From the IMG/VR virus record IMGVR_UViG_3300042894_007411: a stretch of DNA of 64,000 nucleotides; one strand, written 5' to 3'. Source of the DNA: a virus. Lineage: Duplodnaviria; Heunggongvirae; Uroviricota; Caudoviricetes. Below, piece after piece: positions 14,670 to 64,000 of this stretch. Position numbers and translations under genes: made by a program. Positions within the stretch are counted from its first letter, which is position 1. The number at the start of each line of letters is the position of its first letter. The notes beneath the pieces are model-generated. The model made no database searches, was not told the DNA's origin, and saw only the letters and a program-made list of their open reading frames with translations.

Positions 14670-15800
14670 TTAATTAGATAACGGCATTTTTATGCTTGGG
14701 TGGGATTGATAATTCTCCAATTTCCAGAAATCTGGTTTAAATTGTTCGATCTTTTGAGAAAATGGTATATCCAGATCCATCAAATAATGGTACTCGTCTT
14801 TCCCTAACATTTGTGGTAAAGAATAAGGCTTTCTTGTTAGCTGATCTTTAACCCCATCTATTTGATTCAAGTAAATGTGACAGTCTCCCATATTTGAAAT
14901 GAGTTCATATGGTACCATACCAACCTCTTTAGCTATAATTGTTAATAATAGCCCATAAGATGCCAAATTAAAAGGGGTCCCTAGTGGAACATCTTGACTT
15001 CTGGCATTGCACATTAAAGAGATTGCTCTGGTTGGGATATTAGATTTAGAAAGTTCAATGTGTATTTCATGCTCGTTCATGTTTTCTGAATTTGAAGTGC
15101 AGTCAAAAAACTCTTCAAAGTAACTTAATCGTTCTTTAACGCTCAACTCTCTTGTATAAACTTGAAATCCATAATGACAAGGTGGAAGAGTCATCGAATC
15201 CAATTCACCTACATTCCAAGCTGAAACCATCAATCGTCTTGAGTCTGGGTTTGTTTTGAGTTCGTTGATTAGGTTTTGGATTTGGTCTATTTTATTGTTT
15301 GGCCAAAATAAAGGTAGTTTATTTGGTCCAAAGTCATCTTGCCAACTTCTCCACTGCTTACCATAGATTGGACCTAAATCACCCCACTTCTTAGCAAACT
15401 CATCATCTGTTTTAATTTTGTTGATAAATTCTTCTTTTGGATAAATTAGTTGTTTTTCTAATATCTGTATTGATATCTCACTTCTGTCACCCTCAGTCCT
15501 GATAGCATGTTTATGTTTCTTTACATATGCTTTGTAACAATCACCATCCCAAATATGACAATCATTATCAACAAGGTATTTAATATTTGTTTCTCCTCTT
15601 AAAAACCAAAGTAACTCAGTTACAATTGACTTCCAATGCATTTTTTTGGTTGTGAGTAATGGAAACCCCTCACTCATTTTATGACGGATTTGTCTACCAA
15701 ATACTGAAATAGTACCAGTACCCGTTCTATCTTTCTTTTCCACTCCATTATCTAATATATCTTGGAGTAGTGATTGATATTGTTTGTCTAAATTATTCAT
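14670..15800 (-). CDS. thyA: thymidylate synthase (ThyA) with two insertions
   Basis: 'DRTGTGT', 'FPLLTTKK', 'DSRRLMVSAWN', 'LPPCH', 'PFNLASYGLL', 'GDCHIY' all present; 376 aa vs ~265-290 typical. Confidence 0.85.
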   Translation of the reverse strand: MNNLDKQYQSLLQDILDNGVEKKDRTGTGTISVFGRQIRHKMSEGFPLLTTKKMHWKSIVTELLWFLRGETNIKYLVDNDCHIWDGDCYKAYVKKHKHAIRTEGDRSEISIQILEKQLIYPKEEFINKIKTDDEFAKKWGDLGPIYGKQWRSWQDDFGPNKLPLFWPNNKIDQIQNLINELKTNPDSRRLMVSAWNVGELDSMTLPPCHYGFQVYTRELSVKERLSYFEEFFDCTSNSENMNEHEIHIELSKSNIPTRAISLMCNARSQDVPLGTPFNLASYGLLLTIIAKEVGMVPYELISNMGDCHIYLNQIDGVKDQLTRKPYSLPQMLGKDEYHYLMDLDIPFSQKIEQFKPDFWKLENYQSHPSIKMPLSN

Positions 15801-38914: not shown

Positions 38915-39159
38915 AGATTGATGTAAGTTGTTTTTTTGATGCTCTCTCCTATTTTTTCTTTTTGATTTTCTTTAAAAAGTTCAATTACATCTTCGGCTTG
39001 TTTTTGGGTGGGGTATATGTGTCTAGACTTATCACTTGTTGATGTTGTGTGAGAATCCGAAATTATATTTTCCCATGATTCCCATTCCCAAAATTTAACT
39101 TGTGGAGTATATCCCATCTCGCCAGAGTTTTTTTCCTCTACCATAATTCTGTATTTCAT
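38911..39159 (-). CDS. hypothetical protein
   Basis: 82-aa ORF. Confidence 0.35.
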   Translation of the reverse strand: MKYRIMVEEKNSGEMGYTPQVKFWEWESWENIISDSHTTSTSDKSRHIYPTQKQAEDVIELFKENQKEKIGESIKKTTYINL

Positions 39160-45363: not shown

Positions 45364-45706
45364 AAATCAACTCCCATCCATCAGATTCTTTCTTCCAAAC
45401 TTTTGAAGAATAGGGGAGATCTACAGTCCAGGAATAATTTGATCCTTGATCAAATTCAACAAAGATTGATTCTAGAGATGCAATTAAATTCGAGAATTCT
45501 TCGTCCCCTAAAATTTCAACTCCATCCTCCTCCAAGAAAATCTCCCAAACCCCAATTTTTCCCACCTCGACACTTGATGAGATTTTTTCCAAAAGAACTT
45601 TATTGTAATTTAATTTTAGAATTTCGGATTGAATGAATTCTAATTTAGTTTTGTCTGCTTTTTCAGATGAGATCAAGTCGATCTGAAAAGATCCATAGTC
45701 GGACAT
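45305..45706 (-). CDS. hypothetical acidic protein
   Basis: 133-aa ORF. Confidence 0.4.
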   Translation of the reverse strand: MSDYGSFQIDLISSEKADKTKLEFIQSEILKLNYNKVLLEKISSSVEVGKIGVWEIFLEEDGVEILGDEEFSNLIASLESIFVEFDQGSNYSWTVDLPYSSKVWKKESDGWELIFEETNPYEEQEDFDLWDDE

Positions 45707-45725
45707 GTTTTTTATTTTTTTTATA

Positions 45726-46322
45726 TTATTTTCTCAGACACCAAACAAATTGGTTTTCATATAAGTTTACCTGGTTTGGTGTAAAAATGGGTAAACTCAG
45801 AAATTCATCTACAGCTTGAACAACGCTAGGCCATTTAGGATTATAGTCATGACCTGCTATAAATCCTCCAATTTTGATTTTTGGGAACCAAGAAGTTATG
45901 TCTTCTTTAACATTTTCATATGAATGTCCGGCATCTATGAACACAAAATCTAAAGATCGATCATCATAATCAAAAGAGGCCAGATTGGATTTTTTGCGGA
46001 CCGGATTGATAATTTCTTGAACAGGACTTACGTTTTTTAAAAACTCTTCATAAAGCCAATTTGGATCTTCAAGAATTTTAGGGTTGAACGCGTATGAATT
46101 TGGATCGATGTGTTCATCAGATCCATCCCATGTATCAACACAATCAAATCTTATTTTTTTCTTTGAATTTATAATTTCAACTGCCATATAGGATGAACTT
46201 CTTCCCTTCCATGACCCAACTTCGACAAAATGAGATCCATCTACAAAATGTGAAACCATTTGAGAATAAAAATCCGGATATGTAAACCAGTTTTCTCCTA
46301 GATTTTGATAAAAATGATCCAT
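45726..46322 (-). CDS. class I SAM-dependent methyltransferase (Methyltransf_24-like)
   Basis: 'VEVGSWKGRSS', 'DFVFIDAGHSYENVKEDI', 'GGFIAGHDY'. Confidence 0.6.
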   Translation of the reverse strand: MDHFYQNLGENWFTYPDFYSQMVSHFVDGSHFVEVGSWKGRSSSYMAVEIINSKKKIRFDCVDTWDGSDEHIDPNSYAFNPKILEDPNWLYEEFLKNVSPVQEIINPVRKKSNLASFDYDDRSLDFVFIDAGHSYENVKEDITSWFPKIKIGGFIAGHDYNPKWPSVVQAVDEFLSLPIFTPNQVNLYENQFVWCLRK

Positions 46323-48981: not shown

Positions 48982-50043
48982 TTATTTCGGGAGAATTGAA
49001 TTTATAACACCAGAAAGATAATTGGTGATTTTATAAGGATCTGCATTTGAACCTGGCCTCCTGTCTTCTAGATATCCTTTCCATGTTTGAGAGGTAGACA
49101 ATGGAATTCTAATAGAAGCACCTCTGTCGCTAACTCCCCAGCTGAATTTATCAATGCTTTGGGTCTCATGCTTGCCTGTCAATCTCATTCGATTGTCAGA
49201 GCCGTAAAGAGAAATGGCGGTTTCGTGAGTTTTACCCAATTCCTCACAAATTTGTTCGAAGTATTCTTTGCCTCCAGATTCTCTCATTTCGAAGGTTGAG
49301 AAATTGGTGTGCATGCCAGAGCCATTCCAGTCCTCATGCTCGCCCATGGGCTTTGGATGAAAATCAACTTTTATTTTATATGACTCTGCAATTCGAACCA
49401 GAAGAAATCTTGAAATCCATAGGTCGTCTGCCGCTGCCTTTTCTCCTTGACCAAAAATTTGGTATTCCCATTGGCCTAACATTACTTCTGCATTAGTTCC
49501 AGTGATGTTGATTCCACAAGACAAACAAGCTTCTAGATGTTGTTCCGAAATTTCTCTTCCTGCAGAATATGGGTGTCCAATTGAACAATAATATTTACCT
49601 TGTTCTTCCGGTACACGGAAATTTTCGAATCCTACAGGAAGAGTTTTGTCTTTATTAAACCATCGAAGAACATATTCTTGTTCGAAGCCGAACCAAGTGT
49701 TGAAATCCTCATCGTTTATTTTAGCTCTAAAATTCGAGGTGTGTGGGGAATAATCTGAATTTAAAACTTCACATAACACAATGAATGAAAATCCACCTTT
49801 GAGAGGGTCCGCATACATTTTCACGGGTTTTAAAATACAATCTGAAAGTTTTCCATCCGCTTGTCTAGTAGAACTACCGTCAAAATTCCATTCTGGTATT
49901 TTCGAAAAGTGATTTCTTGCCCAGTGCATCGGAGAAAATGAACTTTCCCCTTCAAAGGGAACATCCAACACTTTAATTTTCGATCTTAGATTCGGCTCTG
50001 GTTCATATCCATCCAACCAGACATATTCCAATTTTATTTTCAT
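48982..50043 (-). CDS. glutamine synthetase, type II (eukaryote-like GSII)
   Basis: 'EYVWLDG...NLRSK' N-terminus and ~350-aa length match GSII. Confidence 0.7.
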   Translation of the reverse strand: MKIKLEYVWLDGYEPEPNLRSKIKVLDVPFEGESSFSPMHWARNHFSKIPEWNFDGSSTRQADGKLSDCILKPVKMYADPLKGGFSFIVLCEVLNSDYSPHTSNFRAKINDEDFNTWFGFEQEYVLRWFNKDKTLPVGFENFRVPEEQGKYYCSIGHPYSAGREISEQHLEACLSCGINITGTNAEVMLGQWEYQIFGQGEKAAADDLWISRFLLVRIAESYKIKVDFHPKPMGEHEDWNGSGMHTNFSTFEMRESGGKEYFEQICEELGKTHETAISLYGSDNRMRLTGKHETQSIDKFSWGVSDRGASIRIPLSTSQTWKGYLEDRRPGSNADPYKITNYLSGVINSILPK

Positions 50044-51393: not shown

Positions 51394-52013
51394 TAAATGT
51401 TATAGTGAAAATGATTGTGATCCCCCGAAGACATTCTCTTCGATCCATTGACCTCGTTGGTCCAAGGATCCTCTCCATCGACCAGATGTTTTAAAAGATA
51501 ATTTCTATCCCAAATGGTGGCATTGTGGGAGTGTAAATAATTTTCTCCATCCGAGTACTTTAGAATTTGTTTTTTGTTTATTTCAAATGGGGTTGGCTCC
51601 AATTTATAGGATTCATAGTAGTGCAATTTGGTGTGGATTTTGATTGAGTTTGCATTGTGTAACTCAACAAAAGAAACCAATTCTTCTAAAACTTCATCCC
51701 CGGGATATGAAAAAGGCCACATATCTTCTTGGATGTAAATTACCCACTTAGAAGGAATACGTTCTAATGCCAATCTCATCCTGGTAGAAAAACCATTTTT
51801 GTCTGTCAACCCTGTTAAAATTGGTGTAATACCGGGATTCACGGTATATGGAAGATTACGACAAGACAAATTGATGTCATGTACATTTTTTTCCTCTGAA
51901 GCCCAATAGACCGGTACCTTTTCAAAATTCCAATTGAAGTCAAGACCATAAAGCATACCAAACCAATATTGTTGGTATGAATCACAGGTGTGAACGAGCA
52001 AAGAAAGATCCAT
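51270..52013 (-). CDS. hypothetical protein, cluster member
   Basis: 247-aa ORF. Confidence 0.4.
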   Translation of the reverse strand: MDLSLLVHTCDSYQQYWFGMLYGLDFNWNFEKVPVYWASEEKNVHDINLSCRNLPYTVNPGITPILTGLTDKNGFSTRMRLALERIPSKWVIYIQEDMWPFSYPGDEVLEELVSFVELHNANSIKIHTKLHYYESYKLEPTPFEINKKQILKYSDGENYLHSHNATIWDRNYLLKHLVDGEDPWTNEVNGSKRMSSGDHNHFHYNIYWYCQPGVCEMGKESKEFFILGPIMDDLTSLRLQMQTPQQS

Positions 52014-52014
52014 T

Positions 52015-53010
52015 TTAAAAATTTTGGAAATAATTCGATTTTTGAAGCTTTTCTAGATAATCTGTAATTTTAGAACACTCTGATTCTCTCTTTTCCCCGT
52101 GTAAAACTTTGATCGATCTTTTTTCTTCCGGAATTTTATAAAAGCATAAAGAAGGATCTGGATTTTCCTCGGTCATCCACGATGAAAATCCAGGTTGACC
52201 CTGTTCATAAAAATGTACGGTTGTCTCTAAACCATCTCTTAAATTAATGTAACACAAAGGCAAACCCTCGTTCGTTTTTTTCCAGGACAAAACATTGTAA
52301 ATGGTTTCCTCGTGATAGGCAGCATAATAATTCAAATCTAAATTGAGTTTTGGTAACATAAAACAAAGCTCACGCCACATTTTCACAAAAGATAAACAAT
52401 CTGGTGTGGCTAATATCACGTTAGTTGTTCTGTAGGTACCCCTCGAATCTGGAAACATCTGTAGAAATTGCATTAAAGGCCATTCTAAAGTTTTTGTGTG
52501 ATCTGCCATGGGCCAACATCCTTCAAATGGATTACCTCTTTCTTTTCCAGATTCAATCATAATCATGTACTGATGTATGCCTTCTGAACAGAGAGGATAG
52601 TTCTTAACAAGCGGAATCCAATCGAACAACTCGTCAACAATAGGAGTTCCTAAACAATCTGAATCTAGATAGCAAACCTCTTCGACACCAGACTCCAAAG
52701 CTTTTTCGATGGCAACAGTTTTGGCACAAAGGATTTGATAAATTCTTGGGCTTTTTCTTTCGATATAAAAATTTCCATCTGATTGTGTTCCAAAATCTTC
52801 AGGTCTCAAAGAATCGATAGGTAAATCAATATGAATTAGATGAACTTCCGTAATATCTTCGAAAGGATTGACGTTTTCCCGACAATTTATTCCATAAATT
52901 AGAATAGGAATGTCGGAAAATTTACGAATAGATAAAGCCAGATTTCTAGCGACCTGAAAATAATTTTCAGTCACATGGGTAATGTATGCTCTTTTCATAA
53001 GAACTCCCAT
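52015..53010 (-). CDS. nucleotide-diphospho-sugar (GT-A-like) transferase
   Basis: 'CYLDSDC' DxD-like motif in GT-A-like context. Confidence 0.4.
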   Translation of the reverse strand: MGVLMKRAYITHVTENYFQVARNLALSIRKFSDIPILIYGINCRENVNPFEDITEVHLIHIDLPIDSLRPEDFGTQSDGNFYIERKSPRIYQILCAKTVAIEKALESGVEEVCYLDSDCLGTPIVDELFDWIPLVKNYPLCSEGIHQYMIMIESGKERGNPFEGCWPMADHTKTLEWPLMQFLQMFPDSRGTYRTTNVILATPDCLSFVKMWRELCFMLPKLNLDLNYYAAYHEETIYNVLSWKKTNEGLPLCYINLRDGLETTVHFYEQGQPGFSSWMTEENPDPSLCFYKIPEEKRSIKVLHGEKRESECSKITDYLEKLQKSNYFQNF

Positions 53011-53117
53011 CCTCCACCTGGAAATTTTTCTTCTTGGACTAAAACATTAAAATTTTTTAGTTGTTCATTAAAATAACAAATGTAATTAATGTACAGGTCT
53101 TGTAGTTTCATGGGTTA

Positions 53118-53945
53118 TTAATTAATTGATTTTATTTGATCAATGTTTCTTTTAGTATATCCTTCTTCTGGGACATTTACCAAAATCTTATTGATAAAAA
53201 CCGACCTAAGGCTATTGCTTACCATATACTCACGAACACGCTCCCATAAATCACAATCACTTGGTGATACATTTCCAGTTTCCTCGTAAACATCCCGAAA
53301 TAAAAGGGGTATTTTCACAAAATTCATGCAAACTGTTTGTGTTAATAAACGTGTGCAATGAGGGTAAATTTCGTGATAATCCTTGTCGCTCGGCAAACTA
53401 TATAAAGGAAATTCCTGTCCATTTGTGAAATATCCTTTGGCAAAAACAAAGTCAGCCCCCGTTATCTTGATGCACCGATTAACTTCCTCTAAATAAGTTG
53501 GATAGTAAAAATCATCATGGTTCTGCAAACATATAAAACTATGACCATCTCTCTTTGCCAACTCAATACCAGTATTTATTGCATTTGCTCCGCCCGAACT
53601 CCAAAGCTTATCTCCATCTTCATATTTATCCCTCTCCTTGGCGTGAGGTAAATTTACAGCTTTGATTCTATGGTCGTAACTCTTGGCGATCTGGCCGAAT
53701 TGTTCTTGGTCTGAGTATTTGTCACCAATCATGTAAACTTCAAAATCTTGGTGAGATTGAGCATAAATACTATCCAAAAGCCTGCGAATGTAAAATTCGC
53801 TTAGGCCATCGGGGCGTTGGTAAGTCGGAAATACTATTGGGAATGTCATATCTTTATTTTTTAATAATCCGGAATCTAATGTTTGTTTCACATTAATCTT
53901 GATTTTTTTTATAAAAACGTTTATTTTCTGGTTGATACCATTCAT
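53118..53945 (-). CDS. GT2 glycosyltransferase (likely true start at 'MTFPIVFPTYQRP', ~53849)
   Basis: 'FPTYQRPDGL...SIYAQSHQDFEVYMIGD', 'DDFY'. Confidence 0.6.
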   Translation of the reverse strand: MNGINQKINVFIKKIKINVKQTLDSGLLKNKDMTFPIVFPTYQRPDGLSEFYIRRLLDSIYAQSHQDFEVYMIGDKYSDQEQFGQIAKSYDHRIKAVNLPHAKERDKYEDGDKLWSSGGANAINTGIELAKRDGHSFICLQNHDDFYYPTYLEEVNRCIKITGADFVFAKGYFTNGQEFPLYSLPSDKDYHEIYPHCTRLLTQTVCMNFVKIPLLFRDVYEETGNVSPSDCDLWERVREYMVSNSLRSVFINKILVNVPEEGYTKRNIDQIKSIN

Positions 53946-54678
53946 CTAATGAAGCTGGGACTCTTGAATGGTAACCTAAAAATTGTTGCATTTCATAAGT
54001 AAACGAATTCATTCTTTCATATCCTAAAGCTCTAGGATAATCTAATAATTGTTTCATAAATGATTTACTTATAGTAAAAGGAATAGCTCTTCTATTATTC
54101 TGGGTTTTATTAGGAGCTGAAGAATGCCACACATTAGAATTGAATATTAATATATCTCCTCTTTTTCCTGTTGCTTGGTGGGCATTGTTAAAAAACTCTT
54201 CATCGGTTGGTTTTCTTTCTTCTAAATGGGAACCGGTAAGAAGATAAGTCCCGCCATTCTCAATAGTAAAATCATCTATCATAATTAAACAATTAAGCAT
54301 TATAGGAAATTCTCCAGAATAAAATCTTAGATCACGATGTACTATGGATGAAAAATTAGGTTGGTTAGGTAAATTATTTAAAGCACTAAATGAATTTAAA
54401 ATACATTTACTATGGAAAAAATTATCTTGTAATGATTGAATAAACCCATTTTTAAGTAAAGTTTGTAAAAATTCTATAAATACCGGACTACTTAATAAAA
54501 CATGAAGGGCAACCCCCATTGAATTAATATCATTATTATTATATAATTGAATATTTCTATGTTCTAAAAATGCTTTATCTATTTCACTAGATAGTATATC
54601 TAACCATTTTTTAGTTATTTGATTACGAACAATTACATAACCTTTTTCTTTTAATTCTTGGGATTGCTGTATTATCAT
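53893..54678 (-). CDS. PhyH-like Fe(II)/2-oxoglutarate dioxygenase
   Basis: 'VHRDLRF' (HxD), 'NVWHSS' distal His, 'NNRRAIP'. Confidence 0.5.
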   Translation of the reverse strand: MIIQQSQELKEKGYVIVRNQITKKWLDILSSEIDKAFLEHRNIQLYNNNDINSMGVALHVLLSSPVFIEFLQTLLKNGFIQSLQDNFFHSKCILNSFSALNNLPNQPNFSSIVHRDLRFYSGEFPIMLNCLIMIDDFTIENGGTYLLTGSHLEERKPTDEEFFNNAHQATGKRGDILIFNSNVWHSSAPNKTQNNRRAIPFTISKSFMKQLLDYPRALGYERMNSFTYEMQQFLGYHSRVPASLDEWYQPENKRFYKKNQD

Positions 54679-55340
54679 TTTAAAAATTTTTCTCCTTCAA
54701 CTCTATTTTTAATTATTTTAGCAGGGTTGCCGTATGCTAGTACATTTGATGGGATAGATTTAGTAACTAAACTACCTGAGCCTATTACTGTGTTTTCTCC
54801 TATTTCTAATCTATCCATTATAGTTACCCCTAATGTAATAGCCGAAAATTTTCCAATTTTAACATATCCCCCTGTTAAGGATCCCGCAGATATACTAGCA
54901 AAATCTTCTATTTCATTATCATGTTCTACTTGTGCCCCTGTAGCAAAAAAAGTAAAATTACCTATTTTAGCTTTAGGATTAAAAATACATCCAGCCATTG
55001 CTACAATCCCTATTCCTAATTCAGTAGTATTTCCTATAATAACTGAGGGGTGAATAGCATTCACAAATTTAAAATTAGGTATTAATTCATGTATTTGATT
55101 ATAAACATAATACCTACTCCAATTATCTCCTATAGAAATTACTCCCCCATATATGTCATTTTGATTAATAATTTCTTTCAAATTTTCTTGACGACCTAAA
55201 ATAGAATAACCAAATCTTTTACTTCCTATCTCATGGATTGAGTCAACAATACCAATAATATTATATTTTTTTTCTTTTTCAATAATATCTATAGTATAAT
55301 GAGCTTGGTTACCTCCTCCTATTAAAATTATATTTTTCAC
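54675..55340 (-). CDS. NeuD/PglD-family sugar N-acyltransferase (hexapeptide)
   Basis: 'NIILIGGGNQAHYTIDII' N-domain + left-handed beta-helix repeats. Confidence 0.7.
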   Translation of the reverse strand: MKNIILIGGGNQAHYTIDIIEKEKKYNIIGIVDSIHEIGSKRFGYSILGRQENLKEIINQNDIYGGVISIGDNWSRYYVYNQIHELIPNFKFVNAIHPSVIIGNTTELGIGIVAMAGCIFNPKAKIGNFTFFATGAQVEHDNEIEDFASISAGSLTGGYVKIGKFSAITLGVTIMDRLEIGENTVIGSGSLVTKSIPSNVLAYGNPAKIIKNRVEGEKFLK

Positions 55341-55963
55341 TTTGTATAAATTTTAAATTTAGATAAGTTGGGGTATGGAAGCTCCAAATCAGCGTTATGC
55401 TTTTTGCTACCATCGGTGTTGTAAAATTGATTCATTAACAACAAGCCCCTCGTTGCAAGTTCGGGCATCATATAGAAATTCCATCCGAGCATATCAAAAT
55501 GATCATCGTGATAACTGCACTCTCTCCTACCGCTATACCTTGCTCTTTTAAACCACAAATAAGCCTGATGATCATCGGTAAGTATTGCTCCTCCCTTGGA
55601 TAACTTAAAATGCTTGTACGGACCTGTAAACGATATGCACATATGGGTATTGGGAAGATACATATCAGCCGTAAACCTTAAAGCACTATCCCAAACCCGG
55701 CTCGGTTTGAGTTGGTATGCGCCCTTCAATGTCGTTCCTTCAACTTCTTCAAAATCCACCCTTGCCCCTGCGTGGATGATTTCGCAAGGCACGGATGGGT
55801 ATGTTCGTTCCGGGATAGTAATTGTTGTGCCTCCAACTTTCTCGTACATCAATGCTAAAAACAGTCCATTGGATTGGTTGTCTAAGCACACTGCATAAGG
55901 AGCGCCGGTGTAGTCCGCAAGGCGTTTTTCAAATTCGTTGGTAATGTCATAAACAGTTTTCAT
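55337..55963 (-). CDS. short DegT-like PLP-fold protein (truncated paralogue)
   Basis: 'CISFTGPYKHFKLSKGGAILTDD' aligns to DegT 'SFHxTKNxxxGEGGxVVTND' PLP-Lys block; only 208 aa. Confidence 0.45.
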   Translation of the reverse strand: MKTVYDITNEFEKRLADYTGAPYAVCLDNQSNGLFLALMYEKVGGTTITIPERTYPSVPCEIIHAGARVDFEEVEGTTLKGAYQLKPSRVWDSALRFTADMYLPNTHMCISFTGPYKHFKLSKGGAILTDDHQAYLWFKRARYSGRRECSYHDDHFDMLGWNFYMMPELATRGLLLMNQFYNTDGSKKHNADLELPYPNLSKFKIYTK

Positions 55964-55998
55964 CCAGATAATTTTTTTTCTTCTTGGTGAATAAAATT

Positions 55999-56640
55999 TT
56001 AAATTTTGATTTTTTTTAAATAACCATTAGGGTTGAAAGTAACATTGTAACCATAAAAATCACACCATTTTCTATCTATTTCGAATTGTGGATTTTGGGG
56101 CAAAAATTCTCCTATTGCTCTAAGAGGACCTCCGTCATAGTTTTTTTCGATGCCCATCCAATTCACAGTTCCATCTTCAACGATCATATAGGAATCTTCG
56201 CTGATTAAATCTTTGAATTTATTCATCACAGACAAAACATCGTTATATTTGTGTGACCCGTCTTCAATCAACATAATTTTTTCAAATGAGGATGCATAAT
56301 CCAAGTTGTATTCTTGATAACCTCCCAAGAATCTCTGAATTCTTGGATGTCGATTAATCAAACCCCTCTTTTCTTCGGAATTTGATAAAAAAGTTTCATC
56401 CTGAATATCCACAGTATGAACCATACCTTTACCTATATTATTTAAAATATCACCCAAATACAGGCAGGATCCTCCATAATTAGTCCCTATCTCTATTATC
56501 AAATCGGGTTTTATTTCATTAATTATCATTTGATACATTACGTAATCAAATGGGGATTTTTCAGTTATGATTCCTCTATATAAAGTTTTTAGATGTCCAT
56601 CCATGATACCATCTAAATTTAAGTTGTATGAATTGTTCAT
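55999..56640 (-). CDS. CmcI-family (cephalosporin hydroxylase-like) O-methyltransferase
   Basis: 'PDLIIEIGTNYGGSCLYLGD', 'MLIEDGSH', 'MIVEDG'. Confidence 0.65.
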   Translation of the reverse strand: MNNSYNLNLDGIMDGHLKTLYRGIITEKSPFDYVMYQMIINEIKPDLIIEIGTNYGGSCLYLGDILNNIGKGMVHTVDIQDETFLSNSEEKRGLINRHPRIQRFLGGYQEYNLDYASSFEKIMLIEDGSHKYNDVLSVMNKFKDLISEDSYMIVEDGTVNWMGIEKNYDGGPLRAIGEFLPQNPQFEIDRKWCDFYGYNVTFNPNGYLKKIKI

Positions 56641-56649
56641 TTTTTTATT

Positions 56650-57054
56650 TTAAAGATCCACTCTCATAGTATTGCACTCCCTGAAAAATCCACATCTTTC
56701 ATAGAAATTTATTCTCTCATCAAAACAGGATAGAATAACCTTATAACATCCAAGATATCTTGCTTTTTCCAATGCTTTTTGAACTAATAAATAACCAATT
56801 TTATTACCTCTAAATTTTTCTTTTACTGCTACATCCTCAATATACCCAGCTATTCCCCCGTTCCTTATTAATTTTTTTTGAATATGAAGGGTAATTGTTC
56901 CTATAATTTCTTCCCCTTCAACCGCTACAAAGTTATGATTGTTAAGCATCCACTGGTCTAAATTGTGAATTTCAATTTCTGTAATCCACCATGTTTCACT
57001 AAGGACTTTCAATAAACCTAGTTCATCTCCTTTTTGAAATTCTCGAATAATCAT
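56650..57054 (-). CDS. GNAT N-acetyltransferase
   Basis: 'IEDVAVKEKFRGNKIGYLLV' CoA-binding block. Confidence 0.65.
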   Translation of the reverse strand: MIIREFQKGDELGLLKVLSETWWITEIEIHNLDQWMLNNHNFVAVEGEEIIGTITLHIQKKLIRNGGIAGYIEDVAVKEKFRGNKIGYLLVQKALEKARYLGCYKVILSCFDERINFYERCGFFRECNTMRVDL

Positions 57055-57059
57055 GATAT

Positions 57060-58220
57060 TTATTTTTGAGATTCTAAAACTCGATCAATTACAAATTCAA
57101 TTTCTTCGTCTCTTAAATAAAGATGCAAAGGAAGACTGATGATTTTTTCGCTTGAAATTAAAGAATTGGGGTTTAGCCCAAATTGAGATTTATACATCTC
57201 ATAATTAGTATTGTCTCTATAATGAACCCCGGGATAGATTCCGTTCATATTCAAGTATTCCATAGTTTTATTTCTTTCCTCTACAATTATTTGGTACAAA
57301 TGTCTGGAAGAGATTTCCGTATAAGGAGAAACTTTAACTGATTTAATGCCAGATGATTCAAAAGCAGTTTCATAAATTTTGCAGATCTCCCTCCTTCTTT
57401 CATTATCTTCTTCCAAATATTTGAGACCTACCAAAGCCATAGAAGCCATCATAGAATTTCCATGGTATTTAAATCCGACATCTACCAGATCATATTCCCA
57501 TTTATAACTCCCTTTATCATGGGATCTCTGGTAAGTGTCTTTTGAAATTCCAAGCCAAGATAATTTTCTAGCTAAAGCGTCGTAATCCTCGTTTTTAAAA
57601 CAGATCATTCCTGAATCAGCGGTAGGGAGGTTTTTAACAGCCTGAAAACTAAAAATGGAAACATCAGCATCTAAACCAACATGGTCTTTCGAGTATCCAA
57701 CCCCAATCTCTGTTTTGTTTTTGACCCAGGTTCCGGCCATATGTGCGGCGTCTAAAATAATTTTTAGGCCTTTTTTTTTGCAAAGTTTTACTATTTCATC
57801 AAACCTACCGGCATTACCACCAATACCAACAAATAAAACAGCTTTGGTTTTTTTAGTAATTTTTGATTCAACTGACTTAGGATCTAAGCAAAGAAATTCA
57901 TCCACGTCCGCAAAAATTGGTTTCAACCTTTCGTACAAAATCGCATGATTCGAAGAAACGAAAGTTAGAGGAGACGTGATAACCTCATCTCCATCTTTCC
58001 ATTTATTTGCATCTTTCAAAATTTTCAAGGCAAGATGTAAACCTGATGTGTTAGAATTTATAAAATGCGAATGGTTGAATCCAGTGTACTTTTTCCATTC
58101 TTCTTCAATCTGCTGAGTTTTAAAACCTAAACCAGTCCAGCCCATTTCCATACATTCCTCCATTATTTCGAAAATTTCGGAAGTTCTAAATTTAGGTTTA
58201 AATAATTGAATATTTTTCAC
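57060..58220 (-). CDS. DegT/DnrJ/EryC1/StrS sugar aminotransferase
   Basis: 'FKPKF...EEEWKKYTGFNHSHFINSNTSGLHLAL', 'SFQAVKNL' PLP lysine. Confidence 0.8.
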   Translation of the reverse strand: MKNIQLFKPKFRTSEIFEIMEECMEMGWTGLGFKTQQIEEEWKKYTGFNHSHFINSNTSGLHLALKILKDANKWKDGDEVITSPLTFVSSNHAILYERLKPIFADVDEFLCLDPKSVESKITKKTKAVLFVGIGGNAGRFDEIVKLCKKKGLKIILDAAHMAGTWVKNKTEIGVGYSKDHVGLDADVSIFSFQAVKNLPTADSGMICFKNEDYDALARKLSWLGISKDTYQRSHDKGSYKWEYDLVDVGFKYHGNSMMASMALVGLKYLEEDNERRREICKIYETAFESSGIKSVKVSPYTEISSRHLYQIIVEERNKTMEYLNMNGIYPGVHYRDNTNYEMYKSQFGLNPNSLISSEKIISLPLHLYLRDEEIEFVIDRVLESQK

Positions 58221-59323
58221 AACAAATAATAATTTTTTACTAGAGCATACTTAGACAAGTTTTCTCTTTTAATTTTTATAGAATCTGTGAATTGACATGT
58301 TTCATCTCCTATATTCTGTAATTTTTTTGTAAAAACTACAGAATCCCCATCTACAAACAAATCATTCAATTTTTCTTTGTACCAAGTTCCTTTTCTCAAA
58401 ATAATTTCTCGTTTATAAAATAATTCGCCATTTTCATTTTCAATCTGAATTTCGAATTTTATTTCTTCCCCGAAAAAACCGTAGTCTACTTCCAAAAGCA
58501 ATGAACATTCACTAAGATCTTCTTTCCAAAATATCGAAGAAGTTGTTTGGGAATGTAAAGAACTAGGTCCTGGTTGTATAACTGAACTTTTTAAGTTCCA
58601 ATTCCCAATTCCAAAAAAATTATCTAATTCTTCATAATTGCAAATTAAATTGTCGTCTTGAACAAAAAGTTGTAAAATTACATCTTCACCAGAGCAATTA
58701 GGAAAATGTTTTTGATAAACTGAATTATCAGAAAAATCTATATTTGGAATTCTGTTTATTAAAATTTCATCAACGCTGAATCCGAAAAAGAATCCAGAAA
58801 ACCAACTGCTAAAATTTGGGCTATTTCTAATAAAGAAATTCCTTTTTTTTCCTAGGTCATTAAAAACCTGATTAAATTTTTCTAGGATATTATCTGGGCA
58901 TTTAAAATCACCTACAAAATAAAAAGAAAAATCATAACCTTTAGAATGAACAAATTTTATAGAGTTAAAAAATTGGGACATAATAGCAACAGACCAACCA
59001 GTGATTACTACATAATCTCTAAACATCTCGTTTCCAATAGTCATAAATTTCATATAAATTGGATTCGATATACCTTGTAAATTGTAATTTAAAATGTCGG
59101 AATCAAGGAAATGGTAATTGTTTTTCTTTTCAAAAATAAAATAAGTCGAGTTTTCAATTATTTCTGGAGTACACGGGTGATGGCTGGTAAGTAAAACATC
59201 TATGTTATTTAATTTGAATTTTTTTAAGTTCTCTAATAGAATTTTCTGTTCATCTTCTGTTTGAGGATAAGCATCAATAATAACACAAAATTTTTTTTCT
59301 GTGTAATTTTTTTTGGAGTCCAT
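58217..59323 (-). CDS. hypothetical protein, cluster member (possible glycosyltransferase)
   Basis: 368-aa ORF, ATGA overlap. Confidence 0.4.
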   Translation of the reverse strand: MDSKKNYTEKKFCVIIDAYPQTEDEQKILLENLKKFKLNNIDVLLTSHHPCTPEIIENSTYFIFEKKNNYHFLDSDILNYNLQGISNPIYMKFMTIGNEMFRDYVVITGWSVAIMSQFFNSIKFVHSKGYDFSFYFVGDFKCPDNILEKFNQVFNDLGKKRNFFIRNSPNFSSWFSGFFFGFSVDEILINRIPNIDFSDNSVYQKHFPNCSGEDVILQLFVQDDNLICNYEELDNFFGIGNWNLKSSVIQPGPSSLHSQTTSSIFWKEDLSECSLLLEVDYGFFGEEIKFEIQIENENGELFYKREIILRKGTWYKEKLNDLFVDGDSVVFTKKLQNIGDETCQFTDSIKIKRENLSKYALVKNYYLL

Positions 59324-59357
59324 TCTTTAAAAAATATTTAATTTTTCTTCCAAATTA

Positions 59358-60272
59358 TCAATTTTTCCAAGCCCATATCATGTTTCCAGTGTGGTGTGTT
59401 TGGAATCCATTTTCTGAAAAGATAAGCAACAATTGATCCGGAGGATGAATATGATATTCTAAAACTATCTTTGGTATAGACTTTAAAAATTCAGAGCTTA
59501 AGTAAGGCAAAATTTCCCATTCACATCCTTCACAGTCGATTTTCAAAAAATCTATTTTTACTCCAGATTCTCTAGCCCATTCTTCCAGAACAACTCCTTG
59601 GCAAGAAACACTTTCATCAGTATGATCAAACGAAAAAGAAACTGAATTCAAAACACTAAAGTCATGTATGTTTAATCTTAAATCTTTTTTTTCAGACCAC
59701 ACGGCTGAATTGTTAACATGAATTGGTAAATCCCCAAAATTTGTTTGTATAAAGTTTGATAATTTGGGATCTGGTTCAAAAGAGTGAACTTTAGAAGCAC
59801 CTTGTGTAATTGAAAAATAAGTGAATAAACCAATATTAGCCCCAATATCAACAACAACATCTCCAGGTTCTACTTTACAACGATCGTGGTTATATTCACC
59901 GTTAAGAAAAATCTCCCAAAGTACCAATCCGGTTGATAAGTCTTTTTTTGAAAGATTACTCCCTATATTTTTCAACTTGTTTTTTTGGTCTAAATTTCTT
60001 ACATCATGTTGAAAAACATCCGAGTAATCACAAACTTGAAGTAGGATTTCTTCAGTTTTAGAATCTTCCACTACAAAAGTCATTAATTTTGTAATTCTAC
60101 CGTCATAAGATGCCCAGTAGGAACATTTTGGAAGGACTTTCATTGTTTCCCCCCTGAAAATTAAACTAGTATATGAATCAATGAACTTAATTACAATTTC
60201 TTTTTCTTCATCAAAATGACTTGTAAAATCTATTCCGTTTCTATCTGGTAAAATGTGATTCAATGAGATCAT
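59358..60272 (-). CDS. FkbM-family methyltransferase
   Basis: 'VVDIGANIGLFT', 'FLKIDCEGCEWEIL'. Confidence 0.65.
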   Translation of the reverse strand: MISLNHILPDRNGIDFTSHFDEEKEIVIKFIDSYTSLIFRGETMKVLPKCSYWASYDGRITKLMTFVVEDSKTEEILLQVCDYSDVFQHDVRNLDQKNKLKNIGSNLSKKDLSTGLVLWEIFLNGEYNHDRCKVEPGDVVVDIGANIGLFTYFSITQGASKVHSFEPDPKLSNFIQTNFGDLPIHVNNSAVWSEKKDLRLNIHDFSVLNSVSFSFDHTDESVSCQGVVLEEWARESGVKIDFLKIDCEGCEWEILPYLSSEFLKSIPKIVLEYHIHPPDQLLLIFSENGFQTHHTGNMIWAWKN

Positions 60273-60278
60273 AATTTA

Positions 60279-61055
60279 TTATTTGTTGTTTTGTTTAAGA
60301 ACTTCTTTTTCTTTATTGAAGCAATGTAAAGAAGTGATGTGCATGGTAAAAAGTCCAGGTTTTACATTTTCCCAAGATTCGGGACTTCTCTCTTTCAATT
60401 TTTCTAGAACCCAAAAAACTTTGCGGCAAGCCATGTAAATATCGTCCCTGAAATGGCGGAGGTAGTCGCAAGACCTTATGTAATACACGATGTGTAAATA
60501 ATCTGCTCTTCTCATAAAATGATAACCGATTGTACAAGGAACTCGTTCACCGTGAACAGAACCAGTGTCTTCAGGGAACCACAAAGGAAGAAATGCCTGC
60601 CTTGTAAAAGGTTCTCTTTGTAGCAAATCGATCACATCCCCAAAGTCACCATAATGGTACCTGATACCAAACATGGTAGATTTGGGTTCTTCCGATGCAA
60701 ATTTAGGCCAGAGCCTTTCGGGATAAGTGTGAGAAAATTTCTCCTCGATTTTAAACTGGGCGTTCTTCTTTTGGTTGAAAGGCCACCATTCGTTCGAAGG
60801 TGGTGGATTTAAAGGTTGGCCCCCTATTCTTTCTTCAAAATGATCGTCCGCCCAGGGAAGATTAGGTCTGACCTCCTCGCGTAGCTCCTGAAGTGTACCT
60901 GGCACAAACATAGAGAAAGATGTATTTAAAGTTTCCCACATGTCGTCGGGAGAAGTTATACCCTGCCATCTCTCGGTCTGTACAACATATCCATAGTCGA
61001 TCAATTTTTCCTTAGCCCACTTGATGGCTTGTGAGGGCTTTTGAAATGTTTTCAA
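60279..61055 (-). CDS. divergent thymidylate-synthase-fold enzyme (pyrimidine-nucleotide C5 hydroxymethylase/methylase-like)
   Basis: 'VPCTIGYHFM' (catalytic Cys), 'YYIRSCDYLRHFRDDIY' aligns to TS 'LYQRSCDVFLGLPFNIASY'. Confidence 0.55.
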   Translation of the reverse strand: MKTFQKPSQAIKWAKEKLIDYGYVVQTERWQGITSPDDMWETLNTSFSMFVPGTLQELREEVRPNLPWADDHFEERIGGQPLNPPPSNEWWPFNQKKNAQFKIEEKFSHTYPERLWPKFASEEPKSTMFGIRYHYGDFGDVIDLLQREPFTRQAFLPLWFPEDTGSVHGERVPCTIGYHFMRRADYLHIVYYIRSCDYLRHFRDDIYMACRKVFWVLEKLKERSPESWENVKPGLFTMHITSLHCFNKEKEVLKQNNK

Positions 61056-61129
61056 TTGAAATAAATTTTGAAAATTATACAGATCAGAAACTATAAGTTT
61101 CTGTTTGATTTTATTTTATCTCAAAAATT

Positions 61130-61783
61130 TTATTGGTTCAACCAAAAAAATAATTCTTCATTACCAATCAAATTTAAATCCCTAACTCTATTTTTTTGAA
61201 AAACTTTATATTCGAAATATGGGTTGTCAAAGGGAACGAGCTCTTGTCTTCCTCTTTTAATAAGACCAACTCCCTCATCGATATTAAGAGTACAAATATT
61301 TAAGTCAGATCTAGTTGCCTTTAATTTATAAATCGTTTTCCAAACCGTTCCGTTCCATGGCTGTCCCCAATTATCCTCAACTAATCTGGTATAATTTTCT
61401 TCATACATAAATGGGTCACAATCATGCAAAACAATAACACCATTTTCTGATAAGTGATTCAAAGAATTCAATATGTCTTTTTCCACCTGATAAGAAAGAT
61501 GTAATCCATCAATAAAAATTAGGTCCCACTTATAATCAGGAGGTAAATCCAACAAATTATTTTCTAGCCTAATAAAGAATTCATCCGATGTGTATTGGTA
61601 TTTAACTGGATTTTCCTGGTACTCTAAACCTGGATCTACCCCGGATTTTTCTGGACATTGAATTAAATCGAAACAATCCCACGGGAATCTAACTCCTATT
61701 TCTAAATAGGTATTAAAATTTTTTGTTTGAATGATTTGGTTGATTACTTCAGATCTGTGCATGAATATAAACTTGTTTACCAA
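61130..61783 (-). CDS. class I SAM-dependent methyltransferase (Methyltransf_24-like)
   Basis: 'YLEIGVR', 'DLIFIDGLHLSYQVEKDI', 'GVIVLHDC'. Confidence 0.5.
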   Translation of the reverse strand: MVNKFIFMHRSEVINQIIQTKNFNTYLEIGVRFPWDCFDLIQCPEKSGVDPGLEYQENPVKYQYTSDEFFIRLENNLLDLPPDYKWDLIFIDGLHLSYQVEKDILNSLNHLSENGVIVLHDCDPFMYEENYTRLVEDNWGQPWNGTVWKTIYKLKATRSDLNICTLNIDEGVGLIKRGRQELVPFDNPYFEYKVFQKNRVRDLNLIGNEELFFWLNQ

Positions 61784-61846
61784 TTGTACTGAATTGATAA
61801 TTAAAGTTTCTTGGATACAAAAAATAGCAGGATTTAATCCTATAAA

Positions 61847-62257
61847 TTATCTATTCTTACTGCTCATTTTCCGGTACAACTTGTATTCTGGTGTTTCCTC
61901 AATGGAATCTAATTCGAATCTCTGGAAATTTCCGAACCTCATAGGTCCATTTAAATTAAACCTTTTGTGTGGTTCGACTGAATCCTCGTAAAATTGACAA
62001 ATTTGCTCGTGATATTCGGAATCTTTTTCAATAAAATATTCTTCTGGGTTGTGATAGTAGTCAAAAAGATACTCTGCCCATTCGGAGGGATTCTTTCCTC
62101 CTCCAAATTGTTCGACAAATTTTTCCATTTGGATTTCTTCATCCGTCATGCTTATACCCAAATTTTGGAAACCTGAAATCAAATCATCTAGATCTGACCC
62201 AATATCATTATTTTCATTCAAAATTGAGAACACCCAAAAGGATTTTAAATTATTCAT
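61847..62257 (-). CDS. hypothetical acidic protein
   Basis: 136-aa ORF. Confidence 0.4.
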   Translation of the reverse strand: MNNLKSFWVFSILNENNDIGSDLDDLISGFQNLGISMTDEEIQMEKFVEQFGGGKNPSEWAEYLFDYYHNPEEYFIEKDSEYHEQICQFYEDSVEPHKRFNLNGPMRFGNFQRFELDSIEETPEYKLYRKMSSKNR

Positions 62258-62282
62258 GATAAATTATATATCCATTTTTTTG

Positions 62283-62317
62283 CCCACAAAAAACCCGACC
62301 TGAATTGGGTCGGGTTT
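62283..62317 (-). terminator. rho-independent terminator (minus strand)
   Basis: Stem 'aaacccgacc/ggtcgggttt', 7-nt loop, T-run on minus strand. Confidence 0.6.
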
Positions 62318-62332
62318 TAAGCTTGTCCGGAA

Positions 62333-62491
62333 TTACTGAACTGCCGTGGTTGAATCTACAGAGGTAGTGTCCGCAGATTCAACTACTGTAGAATCCACTG
62401 TTGTCTCCTCGGAAGGAGCAGTTTCTTCTGTTGGTGTAGCACATGAGCTCAGAATCAAAGCTGAGACAAGCAAGAAAAACAAATTTTTCAT
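62333..62491 (-). CDS. small lipoprotein (52 aa) with Ser/Thr/Glu-rich tail; not in ORF track
   Basis: Translation 'MKNLFFLLVSALILSSCATPTEETAPSEETTVDSTVVESADTTSVDSTTAVQ'; lipobox 'LSSC'; terminator follows. Confidence 0.5.
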   Translation of the reverse strand: MKNLFFLLVSALILSSCATPTEETAPSEETTVDSTVVESADTTSVDSTTAVQ

Positions 62492-62561
62492 TTTTTTGGT
62501 TTTGAATTTTAAATTATATATTCATTTCGAAGAATGTTTCAATGAATTCAATATTTTTTAT

Positions 62562-62807
62562 TCAAATAGAAGAAGATCCATATTCCATTTCGAGGTAAGA
62601 CATCTCTATTTCTGCTTTTTTCTGGTCATATCCAAATTCATTCTGAATTAAATTTACACCATATTGTCTCCATTCCAAAAGCGTTTCCCCCTTCAAAGGA
62701 AAATTCAAATTCCAATAGGGATCTTTATTTAAAACTTCTTGTTTCAGATCAAGATAAATTCTGTGTCTCTCTTTTAGAGCGGCAAAAATTTTGTTTTTGT
62801 TTTTCAT
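62562..62807 (-). CDS. hypothetical protein
   Basis: 81-aa ORF. Confidence 0.35.
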   Translation of the reverse strand: MKNKNKIFAALKERHRIYLDLKQEVLNKDPYWNLNFPLKGETLLEWRQYGVNLIQNEFGYDQKKAEIEMSYLEMEYGSSSI

Positions 62808-62823
62808 TTAATTTTTGATTTTA

Positions 62824-63612
62824 TTAAAATTTTGAGGATTCGAGATATTGTCTTTTTCTTTCATTCAGTGTTTTTCTTCCTTCCGATAACCAATTTTCCT
62901 GTGCGTTTGAATTTTCATCTTTAGTTTCTGATGGATAAGTTAATGAATTAGGATGAACACGATAAACATAACTGGGATATTGAAGATATTCAATTTTTCC
63001 TCTTAGAGAAAGCTCAAAGTTCATCGGCCAGTCGGAATAAGGAAATTCTTCCATATATTTTTGAAATAAATCAGGATAATTCACAAAAAATCTAGAAGAT
63101 GAAGTAACACAGTTGTGTTGATTAGCAATAAAATCCGAAGAAGTATATTCCTCTTTTTGTAAGTGTTCAGGAGGCCCAAAAAAATAATTTCCTGTTCTTA
63201 GAGGTTCGAATTTTTTTTCATTCTCGTTGTATATTATGTAAGCCGTGAAACACATTGATAAATCTTTATTATTTTCCATAATTTCATACTGATTTTGGAG
63301 TTTGTTCGGATCTATCCAATAGTCATCAGCATCTAAATAAGCTATGTAATCACCGGTTGCCTGTTCAAGTAAAAATTTTGTATTTTGTATTTCTCCGGAA
63401 TTAGATCTAGAAAAATAGCGAAACGAAAATTTATGTCCTGGAAGTATATTTTTAAAGTACTCTAAAACTTCTAAACTTTGATCCGTAGATCCATCATCCG
63501 AAACCAGAATTTCTACGGGGAAAGAAGTTTGTTGACATAAAACGGAAAATAAACAGGTGTCCAAAAATCTACCATAATTATAATTAGGTATAATGACCGT
63601 TACTTTTTTCAT
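62824..63612 (-). CDS. GT2 glycosyltransferase
   Basis: 'VTVIIPNYNYGRFL...ILVSDDGSTDQS', 'YLDADDYW'. Confidence 0.7.
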   Translation of the reverse strand: MKKVTVIIPNYNYGRFLDTCLFSVLCQQTSFPVEILVSDDGSTDQSLEVLEYFKNILPGHKFSFRYFSRSNSGEIQNTKFLLEQATGDYIAYLDADDYWIDPNKLQNQYEIMENNKDLSMCFTAYIIYNENEKKFEPLRTGNYFFGPPEHLQKEEYTSSDFIANQHNCVTSSSRFFVNYPDLFQKYMEEFPYSDWPMNFELSLRGKIEYLQYPSYVYRVHPNSLTYPSETKDENSNAQENWLSEGRKTLNERKRQYLESSKF

Positions 63613-63622
63613 TTTTAAAAAA

Positions 63623-64000
63623 TTATTGATTTACAAAATAAAACATTGTTTGATGTTCCCCGTTATTATTTACATCCCAATAAAAAGAATGTCTAACTTT
63701 TCCTGGAATAAAAAAAGTTTCATTAAGAATAGGATCGTGTGTTTCTACTGCTATTTTATTTATTTTATTTAAAATTGATTCATCCAAGTTTTGGAATAAA
63801 TCATATTCTCCACCTTCAATGTCACACTTCAAAAAGTCAATTTTTTCCAAATTGAAAATTTTGAAAACATCCTCCATTTGCAAATAAAGGGGGTTGTGTT
63901 TTGGTGACCATAAGTGTGTTGGATGTAGGGATTTTCCCAAAACAGAAGCATTCAAATATTTTACATTGTTGTGTTCTTTTGTATTTTCTATAAGACAAGA
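63623..64000 (-). CDS. FkbM-family methyltransferase, 5'-partial (continues beyond window end)
   Basis: 'IDFLKCDIEGGEYDLF'; track start codon is TTG and frame stays open to nt 64000. Confidence 0.55.
   Translation of the reverse strand, partial: SCLIENTKEHNNVKYLNASVLGKSLHPTHLWSPKHNPLYLQMEDVFKIFNLEKIDFLKCDIEGGEYDLFQNLDESILNKINKIAVETHDPILNETFFIPGKVRHSFYWDVNNNGEHQTMFYFVNQ

Follow-up and report, generated by a model that had tools for sequence, protein, structure and literature searches.

A gene in a large AT-rich tailed phage genome encodes a thymidylate synthase (TS)-like protein that is very probably a cytosine deoxynucleotide C5-modifying enzyme. The stretch analysed, hereafter the window, is a 64,000-nucleotide part of this genome (IMG/VR record IMGVR_UViG_3300042894_007411). 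As best explanation we propose a dCMP C5 enzyme, most likely a hydroxymethylase giving 5hmdCMP, for which we see an even chance, and the clade to which the protein belongs probably makes a modified DNA cytosine.

The call of the TS-like gene (Table 1) is sound, because its length and N-terminus are kept across dozens of homologues (66–98% identity). No obvious Shine-Dalgarno sequence is found upstream of it, and a TATAAT-like element lies about 20 nt 5' of the gene. Elsewhere the window codes for a T4 Rnl1-like RNA ligase, a DNA repair exonuclease (SbcD/Mre11-type), a DNA polymerase fragment, endolysins and a Tad3-like anti-Thoeris protein, and no tRNA genes were found in it. Marine metagenome assemblies contain the same contig (SRR27423420, GCA_043535405.1), and no near-identical sequenced phage was found.

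Table 1 Coordinates of the TS-like gene, its active-site codons and other features of the window
Feature	Coordinates	Strand	Remarks
TS-like gene	60279..61055	-	258 aa, TTG start, stop codon 60279-60281
Arg171 codon	60543..60545	-	E. coli Leu143 position; Arg in 122/123 clusters
Cys174 codon	60534..60536	-	predicted catalytic nucleophile, in VPC
Arg194-Ser195-Cys196-Asp197 (RSCD) codons	60465..60476	-	equivalent to E. coli Arg166-Ser167-Cys168-Asp169
His201 codon	60453..60455	-	E. coli Gly173 position; His in 111/120 clusters
Asp205 codon	60441..60443	-	pyrimidine-specificity position; exactly +8 from Asp197
His244-Cys245-Phe246 codons	60318..60326	-	equivalent to E. coli His207-Leu208-Tyr209
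Canonical thyA	14670..15800	-	376 aa, three insertions compared with E. coli ThyA
Sugar-nucleotide, glycosyltransferase and methyltransferase island around the TS-like gene	51400..64000	-	Pfam

Searches with the single sequence give a marginal Pfam match (PF00303, E = 2.7e-4, residues 137–199 only), its 20.6 bits lying below the gathering threshold of 24.3, and a marginal PDB match (L. casei TS, E = 0.014), so that a family profile was needed; a precomputed PF00303 match is present in a few homologues. A profile was built from A2, an alignment of 59 diverse homologues with a mean column identity of 31%. Against the PDB it matches the CMP hydroxymethylase MilA (E = 1.9e-10), the flavin-dependent dCMP hydroxylase AfhB (1.3e-8), the N229D mutant of L. 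casei TS (2e-7), T4 dCMP hydroxymethylase (1.3e-5) and E. coli ThyA (2.5e-4), i.e., the cytosine-specific enzymes MilA and AfhB score best, above wild-type TS. In these alignments the profile segment 'iRScDllrhfrdDiY' lies opposite 'MRANDAFRGAVSDVF' in MilA and 'MRSQNCAVVMQLDFY' in AfhB. Comparison of A2 by HHalign with five aligned TS-family references returns a probability of 99.1%, and the AlphaFold2 model computed on A2 has a mean pLDDT of 95.2 and a pTM of 0.92; it took the place of an earlier model, based on 39 close homologues, whose catalytic loop was of low quality (pLDDT 70). The profile matches, the HHalign result and the model together therefore establish the TS α/β fold and with it membership in the thymidylate synthase/dCMP hydroxymethylase superfamily (PF00303 fold). 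The marks of this superfamily, a catalytic Cys in a P-C motif and an R-S-x-D block, are found in the protein as Cys174 and residues 194–197.

Residue conservation was counted over 125 representatives of 50%-identity clusters, with denominators that vary by column. Cys174, the equivalent of Cys146 in E. coli ThyA, Cys148 in T4 and Cys155 in MilA, is kept in 122/123 clusters, and in the RSCD block Arg is present in 120/120, Ser in 114/120 and Asp in 118/120. By equivalence, Arg194 and Ser195 are predicted to bind the phosphate and to mark deoxyribose specificity, and Asp197 corresponds to Asp169, the pterin-binding residue of TS. Asp205, present in all 120 clusters with that column, takes the place of E. 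coli Asn177, T4 Asp179 and MilA Asp186, the residue being Asp also in Xp12 and AfhB; hmmalign sets it in one column with E. coli Asn177, T4 Asp179 and the Xp12 Asp. Such conservation of Asp205 and Cys174 is therefore far beyond chance. Residue 204, which precedes Asp205, is Asp or Asn, as in the 'R-N-D' of T4. Further equivalents of ThyA residues are His244 (His207; 120/120 clusters), Arg152 (Arg126; 123/124), Trp68 (Trp80) and Tyr111 (Tyr94), the latter two being invariant in A2.

Two other positions are of the cytosine type. The family has Thr or Ser at the E. coli His147 position (Thr175 here), as do gp42, MilA and AfhB, and Ile, Met or Leu at the Gln165 position (Ile193 here), as do the cytosine enzymes; Thr175 and Ile193 thereby fit the residues of gp42, MilA, AfhB and Xp12. 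The N177D exchange leads to dCMP preference (PMC8670742, PMC13326640), and in the MetaGPA study positions 177 and 147 were those that discriminate best between modified- and unmodified-cytosine phage contigs (PMC8670742). Work on MilA assigned Lys and Ala to ribose-specific enzymes and Arg126 and Ser167 to deoxyribose-specific ones (PMC5175136). The TS-like protein has the deoxyribose-type pair, as Arg152 and Ser195, in place of the ribose-type Lys/Ala signature of MilA and BcmA. Asp205, Thr/Ser at position 147, a hydrophobic residue at position 165 and the Arg152/Ser195 pair together argue for a deoxycytidine nucleotide, dCMP or another, as substrate.

The first-pass annotation, which rested on an ungapped alignment made by eye, had reported a second TS-fold gene with the catalytic Cys in VPC, the RSCD block and an Asp eight residues after it. 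All of these are present at verified codons, and the by-eye alignment agrees with the profile, hmmalign and HHalign alignments; the observation survives because neither loss of the Asp nor loss of the catalytic Cys is seen when the alignment is done properly. The folate pocket could be checked indirectly, the Asp169 equivalent being kept and the Gly173 equivalent being His. That the N-terminal DRTGTGT block is missing was likewise borne out, as this Arg21 loop has no counterpart and position 29 is variable. The claim of a cytosine-specific hydroxymethylase signature divides: selectivity for cytosine is backed by Asp205 together with positions 147 and 165, and the hydroxymethylase part is not established, given Arg171 and the low scores of gp42 (28 bits) and MilA (44 bits) against the family profile.

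The gene is also, as had been proposed, not a redundant dUMP-to-dTMP enzyme. The canonical thyA of the window matches PF00303 with E = 1.8e-93, NCBIfam equivalogs and, by BLASTP, E. coli ThyA; it contains DRTGTGT, PPCH and '...RSQDVPLGTPFNLASY', and has Asn at the 177 position within the segment '...PFNLASY'. Judging from this gene content, the TS-like gene is not the thymidylate synthase of the phage.

Around this conserved core, several residues depart from those of characterised enzymes. The Leu143 position is described as hydrophobic, or as Leu/Asn, in methylases and as Asp or Glu in hydroxymethylases and hydroxylases/5hoC synthases, where the acidic residue has been proposed to admit or activate water (PMC13326640). 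Arg171 stands there instead, so the published hydroxymethylase marker is absent. The Gly173 position, taken by His201, lies within 6 Å of C5 in ThyA (PMC13326640). The sugar-contacting Tyr209 is replaced by Phe, which is found in 104/119 clusters, where Tyr never occurs, and among the characterised enzymes in AfhB alone; the Arg127 position is occupied by Gln153, with Gln in 118/124 clusters, so that the Arg126/Arg127 pair is broken. The protein ends 12 residues after His244-x-Phe246, compared with 55 residues beyond Tyr209 in E. coli ThyA, and lacks the C-terminal lid that in ThyA closes over the folate for hydride transfer. No Glu is conserved in the family on the helix equivalent to the one that bears Glu58. 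With His in place of Gly173 and without this Glu, the enzyme may bind folate and relay protons in a different way. Compared with canonical ThyA (EC 2.1.1.45), the fold and the equivalents of Cys146, Arg166, Ser167, Asp169, His207, Trp80 and Tyr94 are shared, whereas the DRTGTGT loop and the lid are absent and seven positions are exchanged (Asn177Asp, Leu143Arg, His147Thr, Gln165Ile, Gly173His, Tyr209Phe and Arg127Gln).

The two best-known hydroxymethylases share the central residues and differ in these surroundings. T4 gp42, the deoxycytidylate 5-hydroxymethyltransferase (PDB 1b5e/6l18), has its Asp179 and Cys148 matched by Asp205 and Cys174, but carries Asp at the Leu143 position, Gly at 173 and Tyr218 where the TS-like protein has Arg, His and Phe, and its Arg123–Arg124 pair, accompanied by a conserved Glu60, is opposed by Arg-Gln. 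MilA, the CMP 5-hydroxymethylase (PDB 5b6d/5jnh), differs by its ribose-type pair Lys133/Ala176, which is Arg/Ser in the TS-like protein, by the Asp that it carries at the Leu143 position, by Tyr218 and by an additional region at the C-terminus; it is an enzyme of bacterial secondary metabolism, not of phages.

On profile scores the TS-like protein is a member of a distinct clade and is not close to T4 gp42 or MilA. The A2 profile gives its members more than 275 bits, whereas no characterised TS relative exceeds 46 bits (Xp12 46, MilA 44, AfhB 38, gp42 28, E. coli ThyA 24, M6 dUMP hydroxymethylase 22). Membership in the Xp12/PaMx74 dCMP methylase clade was ruled out by this gap and by the different scaffold, and identity with the M6/ViI-type dUMP hydroxymethylases by the score of M6 gp58, which belongs to phrog_5131. 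The clade has 4873 matches in a set of 5.8 billion proteins and 301 clusters at E<1e-10 among 1.84 billion representatives. It is essentially virus-restricted: at least 575 IMG/VR loci carry it, whereas a set of 185,579 species genomes yields 8 short MAG contigs, which rules out a cellular origin. It has no PHROG of its own and matches phrog_160 over the C-terminal half only; phrog_160, being a generic TS PHROG, was rejected as specific to the clade. About 130 GenBank phage records label members 'thymidylate synthase', which we regard as a mis-annotation. The carriers include many Gordonia phages, among them GTE2, Mycobacterium phage Muddy, Streptomyces phage Zuko, Serratia phage Serbin, Pseudomonas phage PMBT14, and Brevundimonas and Clostridium phages; the member is gp46 in Muddy, gp76 in Zuko and gp50 in Serbin. 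Literature searches found no biochemical work on any member, and among searchable papers no report of modified cytosine in the isolated carriers searched (Muddy, GTE2, Serbin and PMBT14).

In relatives the gene recurs in two settings. The first is a nucleotide module of siphoviruses, found in phages of four host genera (Muddy, Zuko, Serbin and PMBT14), in which a P-loop dNMP-kinase-like gene, an all-alpha NTP pyrophosphatase (dUTPase_2/MazG) and an uncharacterised ORF of 260–350 aa are followed by the TS-like gene, a dCMP-deaminase-family gene and DNA polymerase I. Such a composition is that of cytosine-replacing phages, e.g., Xp12 and PaMx74 (bioRxiv 10.1101/2024.12.05.627091). The ORF preceding the TS-like gene has no homologue in the window and no Pfam or PDB match; a weak structural hint of TS-likeness from BFVD receives no support from HHalign.

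The second setting is a replication and recombination block of large aquatic phages (contigs of 100–430 kb). Directly upstream of the TS-like gene lies a Metallophos or IMPDH-like gene, and downstream are RNase HII, a UvsX homologue about 5.3 kb away (29/80 loci) and a gp41-like helicase (21/80). A homologue of T4 gp43 occurs in 8 of the 80 loci, in one of them (L080) directly downstream, and the TS-like gene of another locus (L001) is preceded, at a distance of about 7.5 kb, by a gene for a family B DNA polymerase. In T4, gene 42 is located in an equivalent 43-42-bgt-uvsX-41 block; the likeness is one of positional analogy and is not proof of orthology.

For the window itself, partner genes were sought with phmmer and HMMs (siphovirus-module HMMs and T4 proteins) in all ORFs of at least 50 aa, and with Pfam in about 45 ORFs. 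No dCTPase/MazG, dNMP kinase or dCMP deaminase was found in the window, which is only part of the genome.

In the hydroxymethylase mechanism that we favour, the enzyme is presumably dimeric, like other TS-family enzymes. Cys174, positioned by sequence and model alike, would attack C6 of dCMP, and Asp205 would hydrogen-bond N3 and N4 of the cytosine; sequence and model put Arg194, Ser195 and Arg152 at the predicted phosphate and deoxyribose positions. The one-carbon unit of CH2-THF would be passed to C5 with Asp197 as pterin ligand, and with no lid to enforce hydride transfer the exocyclic methylene would be hydrated to yield 5-hydroxymethyl-dCMP, which, once phosphorylated, would enter phage DNA. 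Provision of dTMP would fall to the canonical ThyA that the genome also encodes, a role played in T4 by td, beside gene 42. Support for this reading comes from the active-site mapping and the invariance of the mapped residues, the preference of the profile for cytosine-specific enzymes, the published residue rules, the composition of the siphovirus module, the UvsX/helicase block, the restriction to viruses and the Asn of the window's ThyA; counted against it are Arg171, His201, the missing Glu of the Glu58 helix, the missing Arg21 and Arg127 equivalents, the lack of partner genes in the scanned window ORFs and the negative literature search for modified cytosine in isolated carriers.

The departures at the active site bear most directly on the product. 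The family has invariants of its own (W30-Q31, W68, E75-R76, N83-P84, Y111-x-E113-R114, R171 and H201) and its own motifs ('NLPWAxxHFxER', 'NP' and 'FSHTYxERxW'), and a separate clade with separate invariants leaves hydroxymethyl, methyl, hydroxyl or something else as the group added. No characterised relative has a counterpart of Arg171 and His201, the two invariants that map within 6 Å of C5 in ThyA. Their predicted location is the C5 reaction centre, and the product could therefore differ from 5hmC. An undescribed C5 modification or a different co-substrate, acting through this pair, is unlikely, though the least so of the alternatives to hydroxymethylation, the large score gap to all known subfamilies being in its favour. 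The argument is drawn purely from residue identities, however, and M6 gp58, an equally divergent TS relative, performs ordinary hydroxymethylation. Slightly less probable still is the specific form in which the clade would add a C5 substituent other than methyl, hydroxymethyl or hydroxyl, or would use a co-substrate that is neither folate nor flavin, with the sugar island then decorating the modified cytosine.

Similar doubt attaches to a dCMP methyltransferase of the Xp12 type, whose product would be 5mC DNA, or dTTP by way of a 5mC-selective deaminase, and which we consider improbable. The dCMP methyltransferase of Xanthomonas phage Xp12, a TS homologue with N177D, is the top-scoring characterised enzyme against the family profile, at almost twice the bits of E. 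coli ThyA, and its neighbourhood of NTP pyrophosphatase, deaminase and PolA is common to the siphovirus relatives, where the TS-like gene adjoins the first two and lies upstream of the third, as in Xp12 and PaMx74. Xp12 nevertheless retains scaffold features that the TS-like protein lacks, namely the Arg21 loop ('ERTGT'), Tyr209 and the full TS C-terminal region with the hydride-transfer lid kept in TS. Furthermore, Xp12 and AXL1 have a DHFR, whereas none was seen beside the homologues of this clade; a deaminase adjoins the gene in only 1 of the 80 aquatic loci, and the window phage owns a canonical ThyA.

The surroundings of the gene in the window raise the question of sugars. The island holds three GT2 glycosyltransferases, DegT aminotransferases, PglD-like and GNAT acetyltransferases, FkbM, Methyltransf_24 and CmcI methyltransferases and a PhyH dioxygenase (all by Pfam), with a cupin and an AAA_33 kinase just past the window end on the contig. 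Two of the GT2 genes lie at 53118-53945 and 62824-63612. Five small conserved ORFs come after the TS-like gene in relatives, within 0.7–2.2 kb of it; in the window they are found at 47.9–51.4 kb, and therefore some 9 kb of sugar genes, from about 51.4 to 60.27 kb, appear to have been inserted after the TS-like gene. A different sugar-nucleotide gene set lies directly upstream of the gene in one relative (L014), and most relatives have no sugar genes beside it. The island is thus variable cargo beside a conserved gene. Adjacency of this kind can be functional, as in T4, where b-gt adjoins gene 42, and in RB69 and DLP3, where a cluster of NDP-sugar genes and glycosyltransferases adjoins the 5hoC synthase; by such analogy a link between the island and DNA glycosylation in the window phage may be entertained as speculation.

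A flavin-dependent 5-hydroxy-dCMP synthase of the AfhB/RB69 gp48/DLP3 gp80 type (PDB 9iqc/9iqu), its product open to glycosylation by the island, would suit this RB69- and DLP3-like arrangement, and AfhB shares with the TS-like protein the Phe at the Tyr209 position, the short C-terminus and a 'Y-x-E-x-x-W' motif. D169N is the diagnostic mark of 5hoC synthases (PMC13326640). AfhB has this Asn ('RSQN'), whereas the TS-like protein has Asp197, conserved as given above, and the Glu of AfhB at position 143 is Arg in the TS-like protein, as is its Arg-Arg at 126/127 replaced by Arg-Gln. We accordingly rate 5-hydroxylation as distinctly improbable.

Two further readings, even taken together, carry little probability. 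A MilA/BcmA-like role, in which the enzyme would serve the adjacent glycan pathway by acting on a ribonucleotide or a nucleotide-sugar precursor and not on DNA precursors, is suggested by MilA as top PDB sequence match and by sugar genes next to the gene in the window and in L014, but is very improbable in view of the Arg152/Ser195 pair, of the replication and nucleotide genes that adjoin most relatives and of the inserted nature of the sugar block. A divergent genuine thymidylate synthase converting dUMP to dTMP, as the database label has it and as the sole gene so annotated in the inspected regions of Muddy-type phages might suggest, is just as remote, with Asp invariably replacing Asn177, the Arg21 loop, Arg127, Tyr209 and lid absent, the Pfam score below threshold and a canonical ThyA already in the window phage.

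To our knowledge, every pre-replicative modification of cytosine known in phages starts with a TS-fold dCMP enzyme, giving 5hmC in T4, 5mC in Xp12 and 5hoC in RB69, and these modifications govern whether a phage is sensitive to restriction enzymes, to CRISPR and to type IV systems. The clade described here is found in large aquatic phages, which are abundant, and in siphovirus isolates, one of them the therapy phage Muddy, and if it is cytosine-specific, many phage genomes presumed canonical may carry modified cytosine. The Arg/His pair at the predicted reaction centre could mean a fourth chemistry on the TS scaffold; a novel substituent, if real and decorated by the island, would give abundant ocean phages a new hypermodified cytosine, and through the homologues the same could hold for phages used in therapy, such as Muddy. 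The presence of homologues in culturable phages makes the question directly testable.

The glycan genes around the TS-like gene form a large and varied island in the window, whose products may act on the host surface, the virion or DNA, and in which glycosyltransferases are accompanied by methyltransferases, acetyltransferases, a dioxygenase and DegT aminotransferases, and a 368-aa ORF within the island has no match in Pfam or PHROG. The glutamine-synthetase-like ORF of the window recurs in a related large phage, where it is likewise found downstream of the TS-like gene.

Coordinates of features in the window and, where a locus is named, in loci of other phages carrying the TS-like gene
Feature	Coordinates	Strand	Details
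Canonical thyA	14670-15800	-	376 aa
Tad3-matching ORF	23094-23675	-	
RpiB ribose-5-phosphate isomerase	26386-26874	-	
YqeY-like protein	34645-35103	-	
T4 Rnl1-like RNA ligase	35105-36205	-	
HAD_SAK_2 domain protein	39156-39791	-	
Glycan island	51400-64000 + 44536-46322		
Glycosyltransferases	glycan island		GT2 x3, GT25 x1
Methyltransferases	glycan island		several: FkbM, Methyltransf_24, CmcI
Acetyltransferases	glycan island		PglD-like and GNAT
Dioxygenase	glycan island		PhyH
DegT aminotransferases	glycan island		one at 55337-55963, apparently truncated
368-aa ORF	58217-59323	-	
Glutamine-synthetase-like ORF	48982-50043	-	353 aa; Gln-synt_N + Gln-synt_C domains
Glutamine-synthetase-like ORF, related large phage	L014 10031-11092		
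ORF preceding TS-like gene, Muddy	L010 4045-4938		
Same, Zuko	L004 5886-6947		
Same, Serbin	L005 6192-7001		
Same, PMBT14	L011 4144-4932		

An unannotated ORF of 260-350 aa directly precedes the TS-like gene in all four siphoviruses (Muddy, Zuko, Serbin and PMBT14). It belongs to phrog_13667 in Muddy, that of Serbin matches phrog_34294 only weakly, and searches of Pfam and PDB gave no match. A BFVD search with a predicted model returned a weak structural match (TM 0.43) to an uncharacterised PMBT14 protein, equal in length to gp48 (262 aa); an HHalign probability of 2.5% lends no support to homology behind this match.

Many members of the TS-like clade, P0127, P0145 and P0149 among them, are 360-420 aa long, and in the long members about 130 extra residues are inserted past residue 100 of the window protein. 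The length of another member, P0121 (636 aa), suggests a fusion protein. Compared with E. coli ThyA, the canonical thyA product of the window has three insertions, of about 48 aa past the Trp80 region, of 10 aa, and of 39 aa in the small-domain region.

Elsewhere in the window, the Rnl1-like ligase together with the HAD_SAK_2 protein suggests an RNA-repair set, and a 193-aa ORF matching Pfam Tad3, a type I Thoeris inhibitor (E 1.9e-36), is an anti-defence gene of the phage.
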